From contig JABSRP010000053.1 in assembly GCA_013215145.1 (NCBI GenBank), forward strand, positions 1 through 44,081: a stretch of DNA of 44,081 bases, in the 5' to 3' direction. Below are positions 6,786-23,259 of the stretch, in pieces (position 1 is the first letter of the stretch; every line of letters starts with the position of its first letter). The position numbers and the translations under genes were made by a program. Source of the stretch: Pseudobacteriovorax sp. (GTDB lineage: Bacteria > Bdellovibrionota_B > Oligoflexia > Oligoflexales > Oligoflexaceae). The notes under the pieces are model-generated. The model was not told the DNA's origin. It ran no database searches and saw only the letters and a program-made list of their open reading frames with translations.

Positions 6786-7055
6786 GTGCCTGGCCTTGGA
6801 GTGCGACAGTTTCATATGAAAATGATCCAACTATCGATGGAAGCGCTTCAAACTGTACCATCAGACAAACGCGATATATCAGCCGTTACGATAGCAACTT
6901 CCGCTGAGGGAAGAGAGTCGATTCGAAAAGAAATTGAGAATTTTAGGCGCTATTTGCTGTTTGTTGCTAGTCAGTACCCAGAGAAAGAGGAAGTACTTGA
7001 AATTAACTTTCAAATGTTTGACTTGACAAGAGAACCTAAAGGGAACGCTTCATGA
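6786..7055 (+). CDS. Small hypothetical protein (89 aa). Its stop overlaps the start of the next gene by 4 nt
   Basis: ATGA overlap with the downstream lipoprotein gene. No domain recognised, so coding status is uncertain. Confidence 0.3.
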   Translation: MPGLGVRQFHMKMIQLSMEALQTVPSDKRDISAVTIATSAEGRESIRKEIENFRRYLLFVASQYPEKEEVLEINFQMFDLTREPKGNAS

Positions 7056-7990
7056 AGACTTTACAGCTTATTATCGTTTTTCAGTTTTTGGTCTTGTCAT
7101 GTGGTGTCAATACCGGCAATCCCTCAAATCCAACCCTAAGCGACAGTACATTTGTTTTGGGAATCCCTGAAGATGCCGAAGGTCGGACGATTCATCTTAA
7201 TGTGCTGGGGATTTCTGTGATTGAGTCTGACGATGTCGATACCGAAGTATTTGACCAAACCAGTAGAGTCACTTCGGGGCAAACCAGTACCTTATTTTCG
7301 TCGGAGTCCATTGATTTCGACGATAGCCAGGCTATCGTAGTGATTCTAGATAAGGCGTCTCCGATTGAATTAACGGCTGCGGATGGCAGTTCCTTGGAAT
7401 TGAATATCACTCCCATCGCAGAACTGATCACATGGCAGGTAGCTTGGCTGGGAGGCCTGGATACCGAGTATGCCATATATATCGATATTGCTAGTTCAAC
7501 CCAGTCAGTACAGGAAGATGAAAAGGTCTGGAAATTTTCCTATGATTTCTTTTCGAGTATTTCCAGTCTTTCGGCTGCCCGAGATGTCGTCCAGACCTAT
7601 TGGGCCGATGCTGATCTTGACAGCAATGCTTTGGTTTTTGATCCTGTGATAGAGGATCCCAATATTACGCCAGTCGATATCGACGATAAGTGTTCTGAAT
7701 CAGCCGTTTGCGATGATTTTGACGAGGATGAAGGCGTTCTACAAGTTACCATTGGTTATGATAATGCCGATCAAATTTGTATTTACGAGAGTGATGAGGA
7801 CAATATTGAAGGCGATACCAATTGCAGTGAAGCGGAGGCTTTAAACAATATCGGAGACGATAGACGTTTGGTTTCGGCAGTCGACGTGGGAGATTATCTC
7901 GTAGTTTTAAAATCTGGTACTCAGGTTCTGACCCAAACACCCGTAACTGTCGTCCGAGGTGTCGTGACGACAGTTGATATAAGTCCCTAA
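7052..7990 (+). CDS. Acidic lipoprotein of unknown function (312 aa)
   Basis: Signal peptide followed by the lipobox FLVLSC. The mature part is Asp/Glu-rich. No known domain. Confidence 0.65.
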   Translation: MKTLQLIIVFQFLVLSCGVNTGNPSNPTLSDSTFVLGIPEDAEGRTIHLNVLGISVIESDDVDTEVFDQTSRVTSGQTSTLFSSESIDFDDSQAIVVILDKASPIELTAADGSSLELNITPIAELITWQVAWLGGLDTEYAIYIDIASSTQSVQEDEKVWKFSYDFFSSISSLSAARDVVQTYWADADLDSNALVFDPVIEDPNITPVDIDDKCSESAVCDDFDEDEGVLQVTIGYDNADQICIYESDEDNIEGDTNCSEAEALNNIGDDRRLVSAVDVGDYLVVLKSGTQVLTQTPVTVVRGVVTTVDISP

Positions 7991-8032
7991 GTCCTAATTT
8001 TGCCCGAAATCTATGAATTGATTGGAATTTTT

Positions 8033-8410
8033 ATGAAAGAAAAAATCTTTATTTTGGGATTGGCGTTGCTAGCGACTCATGAATTGGATGCTATGATCCA
8101 TAAAGAATGGGAGCTTTTGATGCCTTTCTTGGAAAGTAAAACAGGTGAAGTGGTGTTCATACTTTTACATATACTCATCTTTTTTGCTAGTCATCACTAT
8201 ATTAGCCATCCTAACGAGCCAATTAGGTACCGTTTTAAAACTCTGATGTCCTGGTTTTTACTGCTACATGGATTAGCTCATTTTGTATTTAGCCTTTTCC
8301 ATGAGGGCTACAGCTTTTCTCCCCCCATCGAGAGCATAACAGTCTATGGGGGAAGTTTATGTGGGTTGTTGTATTTGCTGCTTCCTGCGAAAACTGGACT
8401 TAAAACCTAA
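8033..8410 (+). CDS. Small integral membrane protein of unknown function. The ORF extends to 8000
   Basis: 3-4 hydrophobic helices. The ATG at 8033 gives MKEKIFILGLALLATH…. No domain recognised. Confidence 0.5.
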   Translation: MKEKIFILGLALLATHELDAMIHKEWELLMPFLESKTGEVVFILLHILIFFASHHYISHPNEPIRYRFKTLMSWFLLLHGLAHFVFSLFHEGYSFSPPIESITVYGGSLCGLLYLLLPAKTGLKT

Positions 8411-8454: not shown

Positions 8455-9747
8455 CTATAGCCAGTGAGGTCTGTAGCATGTATTTTGCGGCGCTAAAATC
8501 TCATTGTCACTGTCATTTCGAATTGTCCCTGTGATACCCCAGTCGTTATTTTTGACCCTCAACTGAGTATCGTCCTTAAGGAATAATGCGATATTTGATT
8601 TCTCCACCCGATTATATAGGAGGCAGGCATTGACTCGTGCCATGAATATGGCTGCTAGATTATAGACATTAGGAGAGGTGCTCGAGATCATATTCTTCTG
8701 GACAGTGATTGCTTTAGGTGTTGACTGAGTCGTACTGTCTGCGGCTGCTGTTAGCTTAATACCAGAGACGTAGTAACGATCTCGCCATGGAAAAATTGCC
8801 TTATCAAGTACACAGTAATTATTTCTTATATATATCTCTTCACTAGTGGCGGGAAGTGTCCCTTTGATACATGTTGATGAGGTTTTGCCTGTGATCCTAT
8901 TGTTCATGATCGTAATACGCCTAAGCTTGAGACCTTCGCCATTGGCACCTCCGTCAGCACCAAAGAAGATTCGAGTGACAGTGGCGTCATTTATCACGTT
9001 CCCATCGATGATGAGATCTTCTGTGATATTGTCGCGAATATCAGAAGTCGCTCCTGAGCGGGAAACCACAGTAATGCCGTTATCGTTGACAAAATCGAGG
9101 TGGTTATTGCGGATCAAGATACGAGATCCTGGTCTACCAACTTTTATACGGCCTCCGTGTGATAGCCGATTGCCCTCTATTAGTATATCTTTTGCTCTCA
9201 AGACAACGATATATTGTCTTTGCTGGGATCTTTCATGACTTTTGCGATTGGTGCTGTCGAAGAATTGATTGTCCCGTATGGTGATATGCTCGGCATGCTT
9301 CATTCTGATGACAGAGGCAAAGTTTTTCTTATCTCCATTCATATCGAATCCACAGTTTTCTATAGTTACCTGCTCTATAGGTCCATCTAGCTGTTTAGCC
9401 TTTACGAAAACCGGGTAACTGGTTCCTTGGGACTTTCTGAAGACTGCTTGAGTGGGGCTACTACAAAATACTGACATATGGCTGTGCAGTTCCAAACTAC
9501 GAGATAAGACGTAAGTCCCGGCTGACACGTAAAGATGTTTCCCATTTTCTCTCGCTGTTTGCAGCCATTGACGGGCACAATTGGTGGCATCTTCCCTAGG
9601 TGTGCCTGAGCAAAAATCTCTAATATCCAGACGGTTAGATGGAATAAATGAGCTTTGATCTCCTACGGTATCGACCCACTGGGGTAACGCAAGCAACTGG
9701 GTCGAAGCCAAAATAAATCCAATAGTTAATAAAGCCTTGGGTTTCAT
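8455..9747 (-). CDS. Secreted right-handed parallel beta-helix repeat protein. It is pectate-lyase-like, and may be a polysaccharide lyase or glycosidase
   Basis: Signal peptide MKPKALLTIGFILASTQLLA. Repeated beta-helix rung motifs are present (IRDNQF, IEGNRL, IRNNHLDF, IIDGNVIND, IMNNRITG, IRNNYC). Confidence 0.7.
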   Translation of the reverse strand: MKPKALLTIGFILASTQLLALPQWVDTVGDQSSFIPSNRLDIRDFCSGTPREDATNCARQWLQTARENGKHLYVSAGTYVLSRSLELHSHMSVFCSSPTQAVFRKSQGTSYPVFVKAKQLDGPIEQVTIENCGFDMNGDKKNFASVIRMKHAEHITIRDNQFFDSTNRKSHERSQQRQYIVVLRAKDILIEGNRLSHGGRIKVGRPGSRILIRNNHLDFVNDNGITVVSRSGATSDIRDNITEDLIIDGNVINDATVTRIFFGADGGANGEGLKLRRITIMNNRITGKTSSTCIKGTLPATSEEIYIRNNYCVLDKAIFPWRDRYYVSGIKLTAAADSTTQSTPKAITVQKNMISSTSPNVYNLAAIFMARVNACLLYNRVEKSNIALFLKDDTQLRVKNNDWGITGTIRNDSDNEILAPQNTCYRPHWL

Positions 9748-9899
9748 ACATCCTCCTTTTGTGCCTGTAGCTTAGCACCGAGCTAGGAGATTTATGATAA
9801 ATTGTCGGCATGATGAGAACAATCTGTTCTCAAAACCTTGATTTGGAGATCACTGCGTAAAAGGTCTAGTGACGTGCCTCCGGAAGTCTCCGATTCTGA

Positions 9900-10934
9900 T
9901 TAGTTTCTACTGAAGAACTCATCAAAGACCTCATCACTCCAGTAAGCGATGCCTTCGGCTTGATTGGGGGAGTGCCATGATTCTTCGGATTTATGGCTTG
10001 GATTGACACAAGCTACGGCTAGAAATAGTAGGCAGAGTGAGGCAAGTAAAAGACTTCGGTTGTTTGGACGTGTGTCTTTGAACGCTTCGATACGACTTCT
10101 CAGTTCACTTTTTCCCAGCTGGTGCCCTACAGTCAGCGGATTTAGCGAACCTTGTAAAAGGAGCTGGCAGTTTAATAGGGTAGCAGCGTATTTCTTACGT
10201 ATTGTTTTGCCCAAGCAAACCTGTCGATCGCAGCTTATTTCCATGGATTTGTTTAGTTGTTTAGCTAGAAAAATCAAAAATGGAGAGAACCATAAAACAC
10301 ACTTTAGTACTTGCATATAGGCATTGAGCTGAATATCTCTCCGTTTAATATGGACATTCTCATGCTCTAGGACTAATGCTAGCCCTTCGTCATCTAAACT
10401 CTTCGTCAGTATTTGAGGAATGAAAATTCTTGGACTAAAGACTCCGTACGACATGGGAGATAGGTTTGATTTATGGGTGTATACTGGGATCCCCTTAAAC
10501 TCGAATGCGCAGTGGGATGAAGCCTCTAGCTGTCGCATACGATTAAGGGCAAATACTAATTTCATTAGTAAGATGGATAGAATAATCGCATAGATTCCCC
10601 AGACGTAGATAAACATGGAGATTGTTGTCGGTTTCACTTCCCTTGACAATAACTTTGGCTCCATGATCTCTTCCATTGTACTAAAGATTAGTGAAGGATG
10701 ATCCTTATTTGGGGTTCTGAAGGTTGGGGTCACAAAATCTTCTGTATCAGCTATTTGAGATATCTTCGATGTTGGGAAATCAAAACTAGGAATAAAAATC
10801 AGCAGAGGTAATGCTAGTAAACTGATTCTCAAGTAATGAAACAAACCATGGGCCGCTACTCTCCCTCGCAAGAAAAACCAACCTACACAAATGAGAAAGG
10901 GATAGATAAAGGCATAAAGGAAAAAAATCATCAA
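9900..10934 (-). CDS. BlaR1/MecR1-type M56 family membrane metalloprotease signal transducer. It lacks the C-terminal beta-lactam sensor domain
   Basis: N-terminal TM helices are followed by the M56 signature SPMSYGVFSPRIFIP…LVLEHENVHIKRRD (an HExxH zinc motif) and MEISCDRQV. After a final TM segment only about 40 residues remain. Confidence 0.85.
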   Translation of the reverse strand: MMIFFLYAFIYPFLICVGWFFLRGRVAAHGLFHYLRISLLALPLLIFIPSFDFPTSKISQIADTEDFVTPTFRTPNKDHPSLIFSTMEEIMEPKLLSREVKPTTISMFIYVWGIYAIILSILLMKLVFALNRMRQLEASSHCAFEFKGIPVYTHKSNLSPMSYGVFSPRIFIPQILTKSLDDEGLALVLEHENVHIKRRDIQLNAYMQVLKCVLWFSPFLIFLAKQLNKSMEISCDRQVCLGKTIRKKYAATLLNCQLLLQGSLNPLTVGHQLGKSELRSRIEAFKDTRPNNRSLLLASLCLLFLAVACVNPSHKSEESWHSPNQAEGIAYWSDEVFDEFFSRN

Positions 10935-11302
10935 TCTAACTCACCTAGAAGTTGACGAATGCGCTCGATTTCATCCGATGAAAGCTTCTGATTCTCGATC
11001 AAATTCAATGCAAGATCAAAAGCCTTCCCCTCATAGACATCTTCAATGAGATTTTCGGCTACAGAATTTTGATAGCTAAGACGGTCAATGCGAGCGGTAA
11101 AACGATGCTCTTTCTCTGAATTGTCCTTTTTTAGATAGTTTTTCTTGACAAGATTATTCACTGCAGTTTGTAGCGAAGTATAGGCAGGAGGCGGATCTAG
11201 CATATTCAAGATATCACGAACACTGGCTCGATCATGATCCCAAAAGAGCTTCATAATTTTTAATTCATGGTCCGTAAGATTTTTATTTATGGGGCGACTC
11301 AT
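10931..11302 (-). CDS. BlaI/MecI/CopY-family winged-helix transcriptional repressor
   Basis: The protein is 123 aa. Its N-terminus LTDHELKIMKLFWDHDRASVRDILNML…YTSLQTAVNNLVKKNYL fits the penicillinase-repressor fold. Its stop overlaps the start of the M56 gene by 4 nt. Confidence 0.8.
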   Translation of the reverse strand: MSRPINKNLTDHELKIMKLFWDHDRASVRDILNMLDPPPAYTSLQTAVNNLVKKNYLKKDNSEKEHRFTARIDRLSYQNSVAENLIEDVYEGKAFDLALNLIENQKLSSDEIERIRQLLGELD

Positions 11303-11344
11303 AGTGAACTCCCTCCGATGCTATATGCTAAAGAAAGCCGGATA

Positions 11345-12208
11345 TTACCGGCTGAAAATTTCGATACTTCCTGCTCCTGTGGAAATATCCACGGGAACCT
11401 TGCCGTTTTTAAGCTTATAGCTTAGGCGTCGATCTACCGACTTGAGGAGCTTTTTGTCTCGATCAAATAATAGAACCTTACCAAACCCAGTAGACGCATC
11501 GAGGGATACGTCAGCAGATGATGGCAACTGAAGCACGATATTACCCCCACCTGTGCGTAAACGTATACCTTTTTTGATAGGTTGATCCATGGAAACATTC
11601 ATAGAACCGCCGCCAGTTTCGGCTTTCAATTCACCAGCCACCTTTTCTAGGTTCATAGAACCGCCGTTGGTAGTGAATTTAAGCTTCCCTTCTGAACGCT
11701 CAGCATGAATAGAGCCTCCATTGGTCTCAACGTCGATATCTCCTGAGACGTCTTCCAGATGGAGCGAGCCACCACGAGACTTAACCACTGCTCTGCCTGA
11801 AATTTTTTCCATGTGAATAGAACCCCCGCGGGTCTCTCCTGCGACATTACCCCTTATATTTTCGATATGCAAAGATCCGCCGGCAGTTCTAATTTTGACT
11901 CCGGAGATTTTGGGGACCTCAAGTTGGTAGCGAACATTACCATTGCCGCCTTTGATCCTGGCACGAATGATGAGTTCTTTGCCTTTAGTGGAACTTTCCA
12001 GCGTAACATTGTCATCTGATACTCCCCAACCAGATACAGTTAATTTAACGTCTTTTCGGTCGCTTCCCTCAATAAAAATTGGTCCAGCATTGGTTTCAAA
12101 GTCAATCACTGGATTGACGGAAACCTTGAAAGTCCTTTCGATATCTTTGCTCAAAGCATTATCTGCGGCAAAAGTAATTAGTACAAAGCTCATCAGTAAT
12201 TTCAGCAT
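11345..12208 (-). CDS. Secreted DUF4097 (toast-rack, putative-adhesin-like) beta-helical repeat protein
   Basis: Signal peptide. A repeated GGS(I/L/M)H(M/L/A)E…(I/V)SG unit (GGSLHIENIRG, GGSIHMEKISG, GGSLHLEDVSG, GGSIHAERSEG, GGSMNLEKVAG) is typical of DUF4097. It is the first gene of the operon shared with the BlaI and M56 genes. Confidence 0.65.
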   Translation of the reverse strand: MLKLLMSFVLITFAADNALSKDIERTFKVSVNPVIDFETNAGPIFIEGSDRKDVKLTVSGWGVSDDNVTLESSTKGKELIIRARIKGGNGNVRYQLEVPKISGVKIRTAGGSLHIENIRGNVAGETRGGSIHMEKISGRAVVKSRGGSLHLEDVSGDIDVETNGGSIHAERSEGKLKFTTNGGSMNLEKVAGELKAETGGGSMNVSMDQPIKKGIRLRTGGGNIVLQLPSSADVSLDASTGFGKVLLFDRDKKLLKSVDRRLSYKLKNGKVPVDISTGAGSIEIFSR

Positions 12209-12237
12209 GTCATCCTCGATGGTTTAGTCGGATAAAT

Positions 12238-12282
12238 CTCCTAGTTAACTAGTAGGTTGACTATCTACTAGTTAACTAGGAG
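12238..12282. promoter_or_regulatory. Perfect 18-bp inverted repeat with a 9-bp spacer (CTCCTAGTTAACTAGTAG-GTTGACTAT-CTACTAGTTAACTAGGAG). It is a candidate operator for the BlaI-family repressor
   Basis: Verified base by base. It lies 30-74 bp upstream of the DUF4097-blaI-M56 operon start at 12208, in the divergent promoter region shared with the alcohol dehydrogenase gene. Each arm contains the self-palindrome CTAGTTAACTAG. Confidence 0.5.
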
Positions 12283-12454
12283 ATGTCAAGCGATAATGCC
12301 TATACGCAGATTCCAGTCGTTGAGTTGTTTCTTATGCATCTCCATGTTTCATCTTTTTCTCCGTGGAATATGGTTAAAATGAAAGTCCCCACCCATTTTT
12401 TTAGGGTGATGACTTGTGACCTTGAACTTACTACCCCCTGTTTAGGAGACCCCC

Positions 12455-13600
12455 ATGAATAACTTTACGTACTATAACCCTGTCAAAATTGCATTTGGTT
12501 CGGGATCAATAGCACAGGTAGCGGATCTCATACCCTCTGATGTTGCGGTCATGATTCTCTATGGTGGTGGCAGTATTAAAAAGAATGGAGTTTACGATCA
12601 GGTCGTCTCAGCGCTCAAAAATCATCGTTGTGTTGAGTTTTCTGGTATCGAGGCGAATCCTACTTATGAAACTCTTATGCAGGCCGTAGAAAAAGCGCGA
12701 GCAGAAAATATCGGCTACCTATTGGCAGTGGGAGGCGGTTCGGTTCTGGATGGGACCAAGTTTGTAGCCGCAGCTATACCTTACAAGGGAGATGCCTGGG
12801 ATATTCCCATGAGTCAGGCAAAAATCGATTCGGCAGTTCCTCTTGGGGCTGTATTGACACTTTCTGCAACAGGTTCAGAGATGAATTGCTTTTCAGTGGT
12901 TTCTCATAAGGAAAAGAAGTTAAAGAAAGGTTGGGCTAACGAGAAGGTCTATCCACAATTTTCGGTTTTAGACCCTAAGGTTACCTATTCCCTCCCGGAT
13001 CGGCAGGTTCTAAATGGAGTTGTAGATCCCTTTGTTCATGTCACGGAGCAATATCTTACTTATCCCAGTCAGGCTATGGTCCAAGATAATTTTTCCGAGG
13101 GTGTGCTTCGCACATTAATCCATTATGGACCTAGAGCTCTTTCAGAAAAAGAAAACTATGAAGTGCGTTCAAATCTTATGTGGGCAGCGTCCAATGCCCT
13201 CAATGGACTCATTGGTAGTGGAGTCCCTCAAGACTGGGCCACTCATATGATTGGACATGAGCTTACTGTATTATATGGACTCGATCATGCGCAAACCCTT
13301 GCAGTGGTATTGCCAAGCTTGCTTAGATACAAAGTCGATAAGAAGGAGGAAAAGCTAGCTCAGTTTGCTGAGGCCGTTTGGAACATTAAAGATGGATCTC
13401 CACGTGAAAAGGCGCTTGGTGCTATTGATCGAACAGAACAATTCTTTAGAGATGTTGGGGTAAAAACCAAGCTTTCGGAATACTCCGTGGCTCAGGATGC
13501 TCCACAAGTAGTTGCCTCTCGACTGGACTCAGCAGCTTTAGGGGAGCACCGCGACATTAAGCGAGACGATATAGAGGCCATATTAAAAATGGCATTTTAA
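12455..13600 (+). CDS. Iron-containing (group III) alcohol dehydrogenase, YqhD or butanol-dehydrogenase-like
   Basis: The GGGSVLDGTKFVAAA NAD(P)-binding motif and conserved His-rich metal-site regions are present over a 381-aa length. AGGAGA lies 6 nt upstream of the ATG. Confidence 0.85.
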   Translation: MNNFTYYNPVKIAFGSGSIAQVADLIPSDVAVMILYGGGSIKKNGVYDQVVSALKNHRCVEFSGIEANPTYETLMQAVEKARAENIGYLLAVGGGSVLDGTKFVAAAIPYKGDAWDIPMSQAKIDSAVPLGAVLTLSATGSEMNCFSVVSHKEKKLKKGWANEKVYPQFSVLDPKVTYSLPDRQVLNGVVDPFVHVTEQYLTYPSQAMVQDNFSEGVLRTLIHYGPRALSEKENYEVRSNLMWAASNALNGLIGSGVPQDWATHMIGHELTVLYGLDHAQTLAVVLPSLLRYKVDKKEEKLAQFAEAVWNIKDGSPREKALGAIDRTEQFFRDVGVKTKLSEYSVAQDAPQVVASRLDSAALGEHRDIKRDDIEAILKMAF

Positions 13601-21724: not shown

Positions 21725-23017
21725 TTGAAACTGAAGTGGCTAACTACAAGAAACAGAGTCAAGCAAGCACTTTCGGGTGGTGTTTTAGGAATTACCTTGA
21801 GTCTTGGCTCAAGTTCAGCCCTCGCAGATACTGTCGAAGTCTTACATTGGTGGACCTCTGGGGGAGAGAAAGAGGCTGCAGATCAACTTAAGGCAAAAGT
21901 TGAGGCTGATGGTCACACCTGGAAGGACGCGATTATCACCGGAGGTGGCGGTGATAATGCTATGAAAGTTCTCAGGCAGCGTGCTGTTTCCGGCAATGCT
22001 CCATCGGTAGTACAGATGAAGGGACCAGCTATTCAAGAGTGGGGTACCTACCTTGTGGACGTGGATGCGGCAGCCAAAAAACTCTCCTTCGATAAAATTC
22101 TACCTACCGAGGTAAAATCGGTGATGAAACATAAGGGCAAATACGTCGCTGTCCCCGTTAATGTTCATAGGACCGATTGGGTTTGGGCCAATAAAAAGCT
22201 TGTCGAGCCAATTTTGGCAAAAGCTAAAAATCAAAAAGGGTTTGATCAAATTCTATTTGTCGGAAAAGAGCTTAAGAAAAAGGGGGTCCAGGCCTTCGCT
22301 CATGGAGGGCAACCATGGCAAGATGCTACTGCTTTCGAGGCCATATCTCTTAGTGTAGGTGGCCCAGAATTTTACCAAAAGGCTTTTGTCGACTTAGATC
22401 TTAAAACCCTAAAGGGACCCAAAATGAAGGATGTTTTTGAAAAAACGAGAGAGTATACCAAACTATTGGATCCAAATCGAAAGGGTCTAGACTGGGACAA
22501 GGCCACTAAACTTGTCATTGAAGGAAAGGCCGGGATGCAGTTGATGGGGGATTGGGCAAAAGGAGAGTTTCTGGTCGCAGGTCAAAAACCCGGTAAAGAC
22601 TTTTTATGTTTTCCTGTTCCTACTGCTGGTCAAAGAGGTTTTTTGTTTAATATAGATAGTTTTACTTTCTTCAAGCAAAAATCGGGATCTGGAAAAGCGA
22701 CCCAGGGTCAACTTTCCTTTGCTAAACAGATTTTGACTCCTGATTTCCAACAGTCCTTCAATCTAAAAAAAGGGTCGATCCCAGTAAGGGTTGACTCCAA
22801 AGTAGGTGCTTTCGATAAATGTGCTAAAGACTCATTTTCTGACTTCACAAATGACAAAGTACGTCGCTTGCCGAGTTTTGCTCATAAGATGGCTATGCAA
22901 CCAGATGTTGAGTCTGCAGTTGTGGAAGTGATCACTGGATTTTTTAATAGCAATATGACTCCCGACTCTGCCGTGAAAAGACTGAGTTCTTCCGTCGAAG
23001 AAATCATCGAAGATTAG
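21725..23017 (+). CDS. ABC-transporter periplasmic solute-binding protein, family 1 (sugar or oligosaccharide binding). It is an orphan, with no permease or ATPase genes adjacent
   Basis: Signal peptide followed by VEVLHWWTSGGEKEA, typical of MalE-like sugar SBPs. The start is TTG, with a strong GAGGAG 7 nt upstream. Confidence 0.75.
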   Translation: MKLKWLTTRNRVKQALSGGVLGITLSLGSSSALADTVEVLHWWTSGGEKEAADQLKAKVEADGHTWKDAIITGGGGDNAMKVLRQRAVSGNAPSVVQMKGPAIQEWGTYLVDVDAAAKKLSFDKILPTEVKSVMKHKGKYVAVPVNVHRTDWVWANKKLVEPILAKAKNQKGFDQILFVGKELKKKGVQAFAHGGQPWQDATAFEAISLSVGGPEFYQKAFVDLDLKTLKGPKMKDVFEKTREYTKLLDPNRKGLDWDKATKLVIEGKAGMQLMGDWAKGEFLVAGQKPGKDFLCFPVPTAGQRGFLFNIDSFTFFKQKSGSGKATQGQLSFAKQILTPDFQQSFNLKKGSIPVRVDSKVGAFDKCAKDSFSDFTNDKVRRLPSFAHKMAMQPDVESAVVEVITGFFNSNMTPDSAVKRLSSSVEEIIED

Positions 23018-23259
23018 AATGGCTAAGCAATACGCCATAACGGCTATTTGGTCTGAGTGAATCTAACTCCTGCAATAGTTTTCATTTACAGTATCAGCAA
23101 TTTACCAGCCTCATGGGTTTGAGGCTTCTGTTGTCCAAGCACGACAAAATCCAAAAAGACAGCAAATTGATTGCAATAAATTAGCTTTAGGGGGGTCCTT
23201 GACGAAAAGGGCTCTCGTTAACGAGCTTTGTTTCTTTTCATTAAGATAAGGAATAGGTC

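Follow-up and report, generated by a model that had tools for sequence, protein, structure and literature searches.

The regulatory systems closest to the one described here pair a BlaI-type repressor with a membrane protease of the M56 family. BlaR1 carries a C-terminal penicillin-binding domain, and this architecture represents only a small part of the family. According to a 2026 survey of about 15,000 M56 proteins, the commonest architecture is an M56 protein without a recognisable C-terminal domain, fusions to TonB_C are second commonest, and only some 6% of the proteins have a transpeptidase domain; a BlaI homologue is encoded within five genes for 96% of the BlaR homologues (PMC13492132). 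Studies of sensor-less systems exist for M. tuberculosis, M. abscessus, P. aeruginosa (PvmSR) and C. difficile (CenIR), and for the last two the signals are stated to be unknown in the recent papers (PMC13492132; 10.64898/2026.08.03.742534). The strongest target of C. difficile CenI is an adjacent exported protein (PMC13492132).

Here we describe a locus of this kind in a 44,081-nucleotide (nt) contig (JABSRP010000053.1) of Pseudobacteriovorax sp., an uncultured member of the Oligoflexia represented by a metagenome-assembled genome. The whole contig was analysed and is called the window below. Three genes encode a probably exported Toastrack (DUF4097) protein, a BlaI/MecI-type repressor and an M56 protease. 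We find that the DUF4097 gene is very likely under the control of the BlaI-type repressor, and that the three genes likely form one self-repressed unit led by the Toastrack gene. The repressor–protease pair is in itself an ordinary member of the recognised atypical BlaIR class, and only its pairing with a Toastrack is unusual. What is new is the predicted operon with the gene of an exported Toastrack in first place, its operators with their non-canonical core, and the parallel to proteins in which an M56 protease and a Toastrack are fused. The functional claims made for this locus are drawn from the sequence of a single lineage.

The open reading frames (ORFs) and their Pfam matches bear out the gene order that an earlier note on this DNA had proposed, namely DUF4097, BlaI-like repressor and M56 protease, all on the minus strand. 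The Toastrack matches PF13349 at 54.5 bits (cut-off 22.9 bits), the repressor matches Penicillinase_R, PF03965, at 88.6 bits (cut-off 22.6 bits) over profile positions 1-114 of 115, and the protease matches Peptidase_M56, PF05569, at 116.2 bits (cut-off 31 bits), so that each belongs to the family in question. The spacing given in the same note holds in part. The gap between the Toastrack gene and blaI is indeed 42 nt in the ORF list, while the 4-nt overlap of blaI and the M56 gene is obtained only with a TTG start; with the ATG one codon later, which is the start in the public gene calls (P0001, 343 residues), the two genes overlap by 1 nt (TGATG).

The evidence that ties the repressor to this unit is found upstream of the Toastrack gene, in a region that contains CTCCTAGTTAACTAGTAG ... 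CTACTAGTTAACTAGGAG. A consensus scan predicts a near-consensus promoter there, with 10 of 12 consensus matches and an 18-nt spacer, and two exact copies of the palindrome CTAGTTAACTAG are placed on it (Table 1). The copies are 27 bp apart start to start, and each is part of an imperfect dyad of 22-24 bp. Together they make up a perfect inverted repeat with 20-nt arms that are 100% complementary, the longest perfect one in the 44-kb window. For comparison, BlaI/MecI operators are imperfect dyads of 24-30 bp with a central 10-bp palindrome (PMC1935004), and CopY-family promoters with two operators have spacings of 24-39 bp, with a mode of 26; of the two operators, one has been proposed to act by blocking the -35, the other by blocking RNA polymerase (PMC7253601). 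The geometry and the spacing of the candidate operators fit the BlaI/MecI/CopY family, while the core, TAGTTAACTA, departs in sequence from the canonical TACANNTGTA.

Neither the 42-nt gap before blaI nor the one that separates the M56 gene from its downstream neighbour, which encodes a protein of 430 amino acids (aa), was found to contain such a palindrome, and the promoter scan detected no promoter-like site upstream of blaI. Because the sole operator-like palindromes sit in its promoter, the DUF4097 gene is very likely controlled by the BlaI-type repressor, and the connection that the earlier note had made between the repressor pair and the control of this gene is very likely correct. On the most economical and likely reading of the sequence, the promoter controlled by the repressor is the one before the Toastrack gene, with blaI and the M56 gene dependent on read-through.

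Further copies of the operator amount to three sites with two mismatches in the window, near the chance expectation. They were dropped as possible regulon members on account of this number, and the one at 23214 resembles a terminator hairpin. Besides the two operators, perfect 12-bp palindromes with the same GTTAAC centre are present at 23214-23225 (CTCGTTAACGAG) and at 759-770 (CGAGTTAACTCG); the former is followed by a T-run and lies about 200 nt after the gene at 21725..23017, which is a terminator-like arrangement.

Table 1. Positions of the genes, predicted regulatory sites and protein features in the window, with those of the neighbouring genes in the last two lines.
Feature	Position	Strand	Basis and remarks
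-35 hexamer TTGACA, predicted operon promoter	12284..12289	minus	consensus scan
Operator 1 (candidate), exact 12-bp palindrome	12268..12279	.	in the -35/-10 spacer; extended imperfect dyad 12263-12284
-10 hexamer GATAGT, predicted operon promoter	12260..12265	minus	consensus scan
Operator 2 (candidate), second exact copy	12241..12252	.	just 3' of the -10, about where transcription is expected to start; extended dyad 12235-12258
Shine-Dalgarno GAGGA of the Toastrack gene	12213..12217	minus	read from the sequence
DUF4097/Toastrack gene	11345..12208	minus	ORF, 287 aa
Hairpin overlapping the Toastrack stop codon, then UUUCUUU	11336..11353	minus	terminator-like site; folding energy
BlaI/MecI-type repressor gene	10931..11302	minus	ORF, 123 aa
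Codons N100-L101 of the repressor	11000..11005	minus	aligned with the S. aureus BlaI N101-F102 bond
M56 protease gene	9900..10934	minus	ORF, 344 aa from TTG; 343 aa from ATG at 10931
HENVH zinc-binding motif, residues 191-195	10350..10364	minus	sequence and M56 alignment
Predicted periplasmic tail of 34 residues beyond the last helix, acidic and aromatic, NPSHKSEESWHSPNQAEGIAYWSDEVFDEFFSRN	9903..10004	minus	hydrophobicity
13-mer ATAAATCTCCTAG, flank and outer half of operator 2	9783..9795	minus	36 nt upstream of the 430-aa gene
430-aa protein gene, signal-peptide-like N-terminus	8455..9747	minus	ORF; PF12708 below cut-off
YqhD-like iron alcohol/aldehyde reductase gene	12455..13600	plus	divergent; NF011717

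Almost the entire repressor can be aligned with MecI (residues 8-121) and with BlaI (residues 11-123). S. aureus BlaI is cleaved at N101-F102 (PMC1935004), and this scissile bond aligns with N100-L101, the Asn being conserved and the Phe replaced by Leu, in a helix that is well conserved around the site (VYEGKAFDLALNLIENQKLSSDEIE vs VYKGGFNSLVLNFVEKEELSQDEIE). The best NCBIfam match of the protein is CopY_TcrY, at a sub-threshold score. Copper sensing of the CopY type can be ruled out because the translated repressor contains no cysteine, and thus no CxC metal site.

The earlier note had described the M56 protein as one that keeps the HExxH site and lacks a penicillin-binding sensor, and both statements stand. 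The motif is HENVH, and the protease retains every invariant column of a 150-sequence M56 alignment (H191, E192, H195, P218, E232 and R281), E232 being the downstream Glu ligand. Hydrophobicity indicates four membrane helices and a re-entrant helix. The last helix is at about residues 294-310 and is followed by a short tail, as had been claimed, of 34 rather than about 40 residues. In the AlphaFold model, built on the same alignment, the core (103-310) is confident, and the outer loop (about 47-102) and the final 34 residues have low confidence; the tail shows only a short helix at 335-342 and no folded domain. The nearest solved structures are the cryo-EM entries of S. aureus BlaR1, 8EXP-8EXT, of which 8EXP aligns to the protease over its residues 9-319 only. 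With the NCBIfam model blaR1_generic (cut-off 400 bits) the score is 64 bits, and the match is limited to positions 108-324 of 585. Neither the NCBIfam BlaR1 equivalogs nor the model gave a C-terminal penicillin-binding (transpeptidase-like) sensor domain, and a cryptic sensor at this end is ruled out by Pfam, NCBIfam, a PDB sequence search and the AlphaFold model. With an M56 score above threshold, the HExxH motif, the downstream Glu and four membrane helices, the protein is, as judged from sequence and model, a membrane zinc protease with four helices that lacks its own sensor domain. It does not follow that a BlaI/BlaR1 circuit has been "rewired" here, as the note had put it: in the survey, the sensor-less M56 protein is the commonest architecture and the BlaR1 type the one with about 6% (PMC13492132).

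The AlphaFold model of the Toastrack is an all-beta structure (beta-helix) with a predicted local distance difference test score (pLDDT) of 91.6. Its best PDB matches are 4QRK (top), 3PET, 3LYC and 4OPW; 4QRK and 4OPW are example entries of the Toastrack fold (PMC11237479). The N-terminus has low confidence. Its residues 1-20 (MLKLLMSFVLITFAADNALS) resemble a Sec signal peptide, and signal-peptide-like N-terminal segments are present in all aligned relatives, so that this Toastrack subfamily is predicted to be exported. With its predicted signal peptide, the Toastrack would share a compartment with the tail and the outer loop of the protease.

DUF4097 proteins have been reported in association with Psp/Lia systems (PMC11237479), which is the part of the earlier note's statement on this point that stands. 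At the locus itself, no Psp/Lia gene (PspA, PspC, LiaI-LiaF-TM, LiaRS) is present within about 6 kb, where the genes encode NUDIX, hydrolase, acetyltransferase, Fe-ADH, DUF6713, DUF4423 and PAS proteins. The Toastrack scores 63.9 bits with the NCBIfam LiaG equivalog model (cut-off 285) and 23.8 bits with LiaF_C (cut-off 57). The proposed link to envelope stress is thus one of analogy.

M56 proteases that carry a Toastrack themselves offer a parallel. One of the 149 nearest M56 relatives, P0212 (731 aa), matches M56 at 216.5 bits and, at its C-terminus, DUF4097 at 53.5 bits. It belongs to a fusion family of at least 15-17 clusters (P0212, P0279-P0294; 46-76% identity, 700-1140 aa), whose hosts are likely Clostridia, judged by named near relatives. 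The DUF4097 domain is placed after the fourth membrane helix, and since P0212 has four helices like BlaR1, this topology puts the Toastrack in the extracytoplasmic position of the BlaR1 sensor. The locus examined for this family, that of P0212 (contigs L013/L014, 3634-6196), is a bare two-gene unit in which blaI overlaps the gene of the M56::Toastrack fusion. The BlaI, M56 and Toastrack modules are accordingly fused in one lineage and split in another, which is suggestive without being strong. We found no description of the M56::Toastrack architecture in the literature searched.

The model that we favour on this basis is tentative and, in our judgment, falls a little short of probable. It consists of an autorepressed operon in which the Toastrack is both a product and the periplasmic partner of the protease. 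Dimers of the repressor would bind the two palindromes, which straddle the -10 hexamer, and thereby turn off the Toastrack gene, as suggested by the position of the sites; blaI and the M56 gene, reached by read-through of a weak hairpin, would also be shut off. The catalytic domain of the protease would face the cytoplasm. An extracytoplasmic cue would activate the protease, which would cut the repressor in its dimerisation helix near N100-L101, by homology, and the cut repressor would leave the DNA, so that the operon is induced. The exported Toastrack would be the periplasmic partner of the protease, docking on its 47-residue outer loop and/or its acidic 34-residue tail, and would represent the separately encoded counterpart of the domain found at the C-terminus of the M56::Toastrack fusions. 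As the first and probably the highest-expressed gene of the unit, it would encode a protein that is the chief product under regulation and at the same time an element of feedback, comparable to LiaF and VraT for their kinases.

The sequences themselves show the genes with their domains and catalytic residues, the lack of a sensor, the palindromes and the geometry of the promoter, the signal peptide and the occurrence of the fusions. In this model, the binding of the repressor to the palindromes, the induction by proteolysis, the co-transcription and the Toastrack–M56 interaction are the steps that we infer. For autoregulation by the repressor, the supporting observation is the position of the palindromes and nothing else. 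We propose a partner role for the Toastrack on account of the fusions, of the compartment that it would share with the protease, and of the part that the LiaF and VraT Toastracks play in regulation.

The first and main alternative to consider is that the Toastrack is purely an output, which we regard as somewhat unlikely. In that case, the BlaI/M56 pair would sense the cue itself, through its helices or its outer loop, and the Toastrack would be an envelope-stress effector or a surface/adhesin-like protein. The operators do lie directly before the Toastrack gene, the first in the unit, and the hairpin after this gene would favour its higher expression. An output gene upstream of its own regulators in one operon would, however, be atypical for bla/mec. 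Many sensor-less M56 proteins have no Toastrack nearby, meaning that M56 can work without one, and the main CenI target in C. difficile being an adjacent exported protein (PMC13492132) points in the same direction, as does the downstream secreted beta-helix gene with its copy of half an operator, which would fit a small regulon of exported proteins. On the other hand, the fusions put the Toastrack in the sensor position of BlaR1, and known Toastracks, e.g. LiaF and VraT, are regulatory modules and not effectors (PMC11237479). The earlier note had taken DUF4097 to be the output of the circuit; this is one reading only, and a role as partner or input is indicated by the fusions with at least equal strength. 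It is important to point out that the two roles are not mutually exclusive.

Several observations weigh against the model of an autorepressed operon with the Toastrack as product and partner. Firstly, the operator core is unlike the canonical one. Secondly, the hairpin in the 42-nt gap could stop transcription before blaI. It has 6 bp, is GC-rich and has a folding energy of -10.8 kcal/mol (z = -3.9). Possible roles are those of a partial terminator, an attenuator or an mRNA-stabilising end: by attenuating transcription it could keep the ratio of Toastrack to regulators high, or the transcript could end there. Co-transcription of the three genes, as had been proposed, is therefore plausible and not assured. 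Thirdly, most Toastrack domains have been argued to be intracellular or cytoplasmic (PMC11237479). Finally, M56 domains are fused to hundreds of different C-terminal domains (PMC13492132), and because M56 accepts so many of them, a fusion with any one is only a weak indication that the two are specific partners. Also here, the 149 nearest M56 relatives range from 252 to 1559 aa and have many different C-terminal domains; the nearest ones, P0002 and P0004, are short as well.

The distribution of the arrangement weighs in the same direction. An exhaustive HMMER search of 1.84 billion representatives yielded 49,881 M56 relatives, none of them below E = 1e-30 apart from the protease itself; the next relative has about 30% identity and E = 4.5e-22. 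A word-index search with the protease returned the same protein and remote matches of at most 35% identity. The locus is carried by five other contigs, which are 99.9-100% identical, and no orthologue of the M56 protein or of the Toastrack was found outside this one near-clonal population. With near-identical contigs only, gene order and operators cannot be judged by conservation. We also examined a sample of 80 genome and 80 metagenome M56 loci, retrieved with a three-sequence core alignment that recovered the positive controls and biased to Clostridia-like M56 proteins sharing HENVH. A BlaI gene is present in the flanks of 73 and 74 loci in the two sets of 80, and a DUF4097 gene or fusion near M56 in none of the 160, which implies a frequency of the Toastrack linkage below about 2% in this biased sample. 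The closest relatives of the Toastrack belong to Bacteroidota and Verrucomicrobiota (about 30-40% identity), and none of the four loci examined contains BlaI or M56 genes nearby; they contain MacB/FtsX permease arrays, glycosyltransferase genes or unrelated genes. The link between the Toastrack and BlaI/M56 is thus rare and could be incidental. The literature gave no such link either: none was found between DUF4097/Toastrack and BlaI/M56, a full-text search returning one unrelated paper, and the fullest Toastrack survey makes no mention of BlaI, MecI, BlaR or M56 (PMC11237479).

An incidental adjacency of the genes is the second alternative. The Toastrack unit would then end at the hairpin, the palindromes would be bound by another regulator, or by BlaI with this as one of several targets, and blaI-M56 would have its own promoter and control genes elsewhere. 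The stable hairpin with its short U-run, the absence of the link from all sampled M56 and Toastrack-relative loci, and the mismatch of the operator core to TACANNTGTA (PMC1935004) are what one would expect in this case. The gap of only 42 nt, with no promoter-like site found upstream of blaI, is not, and blaI would be without a palindrome of its own even though autoregulation is the rule in the family. Moreover, the size, symmetry and spacing of the palindromes are typical of the family (PMC7253601, PMC1935004), and just such a repressor is encoded 0.9 kb downstream. We therefore consider this explanation improbable.

A third alternative, that the palindromes serve the divergent YqhD-like reductase gene too or instead, as in the divergent blaZ / blaR1-blaI arrangement, with the reductase as the real output, is very unlikely: the reductase (NF011717, 513 bits, below the cut-off of 645) does share the 246-bp intergenic region (12209-12454) with the Toastrack gene, and a hexamer resembling a -10 (GATAAT, 12292-12297) adjoins operator 1, but the scan found no rightward promoter in the region, the candidate -35 is poor, and the operators are some 175-215 bp from the reductase start codon while they overlap the leftward promoter.

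Two observations on related loci can be added. In L010 and L011 (Mucilaginibacter celer and a metagenome contig), the closest DUF4097 relatives, of about 344 aa and from Bacteroidota, are encoded amid at least four MacB/FtsX-type permease genes, a different and apparently recurrent context for this Toastrack subfamily. Contig L007 (4121-6160; also L008 and L009) has another unit of three genes, namely blaI, a short M56 gene and the gene of a PD40 beta-propeller protein (181 aa) whose N-terminus is hydrophobic; the M56 protein there has 354 aa and stops short of a fourth membrane helix. About 50 nt upstream of blaI, at 4056-4073 of L007, there is a palindrome that resembles a cop box and contains TACAATTGTA.

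If the Toastrack is indeed a partner of the protease at this locus, a more general possibility can be formulated, which we consider unlikely as it stands. The Toastrack would be a modular extracytoplasmic sensor or adaptor for M56, acting in cis in the fusions and in trans at this locus, and sensor-less BlaR-type proteases would generally be fed by adjacent exported partners. If true, this would answer what the atypical BlaIR systems sense. A protease cut down to near its membrane core, next to an exported Toastrack, makes for the testable idea that a periplasmic protein encoded on its own may stand in for the sensor that the protease lacks, and the fusions of these two modules support this idea. 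The candidate operator with its core other than TACANNTGTA is useful for mapping the variation of DNA specificity in the repressor family. The practical value is limited, with an uncultured organism and a rare arrangement.

Turning to the neighbouring genes, the 430-aa protein has a weak match to a pectate-lyase-like beta-helix family (PF12708, E = 0.0024, below cut-off). No terminator-like site was found in the 152-nt gap between the M56 gene and its gene, which is possibly a fourth member of the unit or a second target. The 13-mer upstream of it is a half-site only, and may be a half-operator or a copied promoter fragment. A 9-mer within ATAAATCTCCTAG has 3 matches in the window against 0.36 expected. 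The score of the site is reached in 3 of 500 shuffles. By eye, a TTGTTC-17 nt-TATCAT promoter-like pair is seen just upstream of this copy. Further along, on the plus strand, there are small genes for a DUF6713 membrane protein (8000-8410) and a DUF4423-type product (6786-7055; assigned from the identical contig L001), and between them the gene for a 312-aa acidic lipoprotein-like protein without a family match (7052-7990).

Finally, the locus can be compared with the known systems. It shares with BlaI-BlaR1/MecI-MecR1 (S. aureus / B. licheniformis) a winged-helix repressor of the same Pfam family that aligns end to end, an M56 zinc protease with four-helix topology, HExxH and downstream Glu, the translational coupling of the two genes, and two dyad operators that overlap the promoter. 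It differs in that the protease has no penicillin-binding domain and ends 34 residues past helix 4, and in that the blaR1-blaI order is reversed, the repressor gene preceding that of the protease. There is no beta-lactamase or PBP2a gene, and the Toastrack gene leads instead; the operator core is TAGTTAACTA rather than TACANNTGTA, and Leu takes the place of Phe after the conserved Asn. In CopY/CopR systems, the repressor is of the same family and the promoter elements are flanked by two identical palindromes with a spacing of about 26 bp (PMC7253601), whereas the repressor of the locus lacks the CxC site and is paired with a protease and not with a copper exporter.

As in CenIR, PvmSR and mycobacterial BlaIR, a BlaI-type repressor is combined with an M56 protein without a transpeptidase domain (PMC13492132; 10.64898/2026.08.03.742534). 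The accessible texts on these three systems describe no Toastrack/DUF4097 partner. In CenIR, the exported-protein gene is downstream and separately transcribed, whereas here it comes first behind the operators. With LiaF/LiaG/VraT, the locus has in common a Toastrack encoded in an (apparently) autoregulated operon together with signalling proteins that it may modulate (PMC11237479). The partners are a histidine kinase and a response regulator in those systems and a protease and a repressor here. The LiaF/LiaG/VraT Toastracks are membrane-anchored and predicted to be cytoplasmic, while that of the locus starts with a signal peptide that looks cleavable; it is not recognised by the LiaG or the LiaF model, and no PspA, PspC or LiaI-LiaF-TM is encoded near the locus. 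The M56::Toastrack fusions, lastly, have BlaI, M56 and Toastrack in one small unit with the Toastrack in an extracytoplasmic position, as predicted here. In the fusions, a spacer of about 200 residues connects the protease to the Toastrack, and two genes make up the unit, whereas at the locus the Toastrack is a separate, probably secreted protein encoded upstream. The Toastracks of the P0212 family and of the locus have 25% identity, and at this low similarity the fused and the split arrangements probably arose independently.

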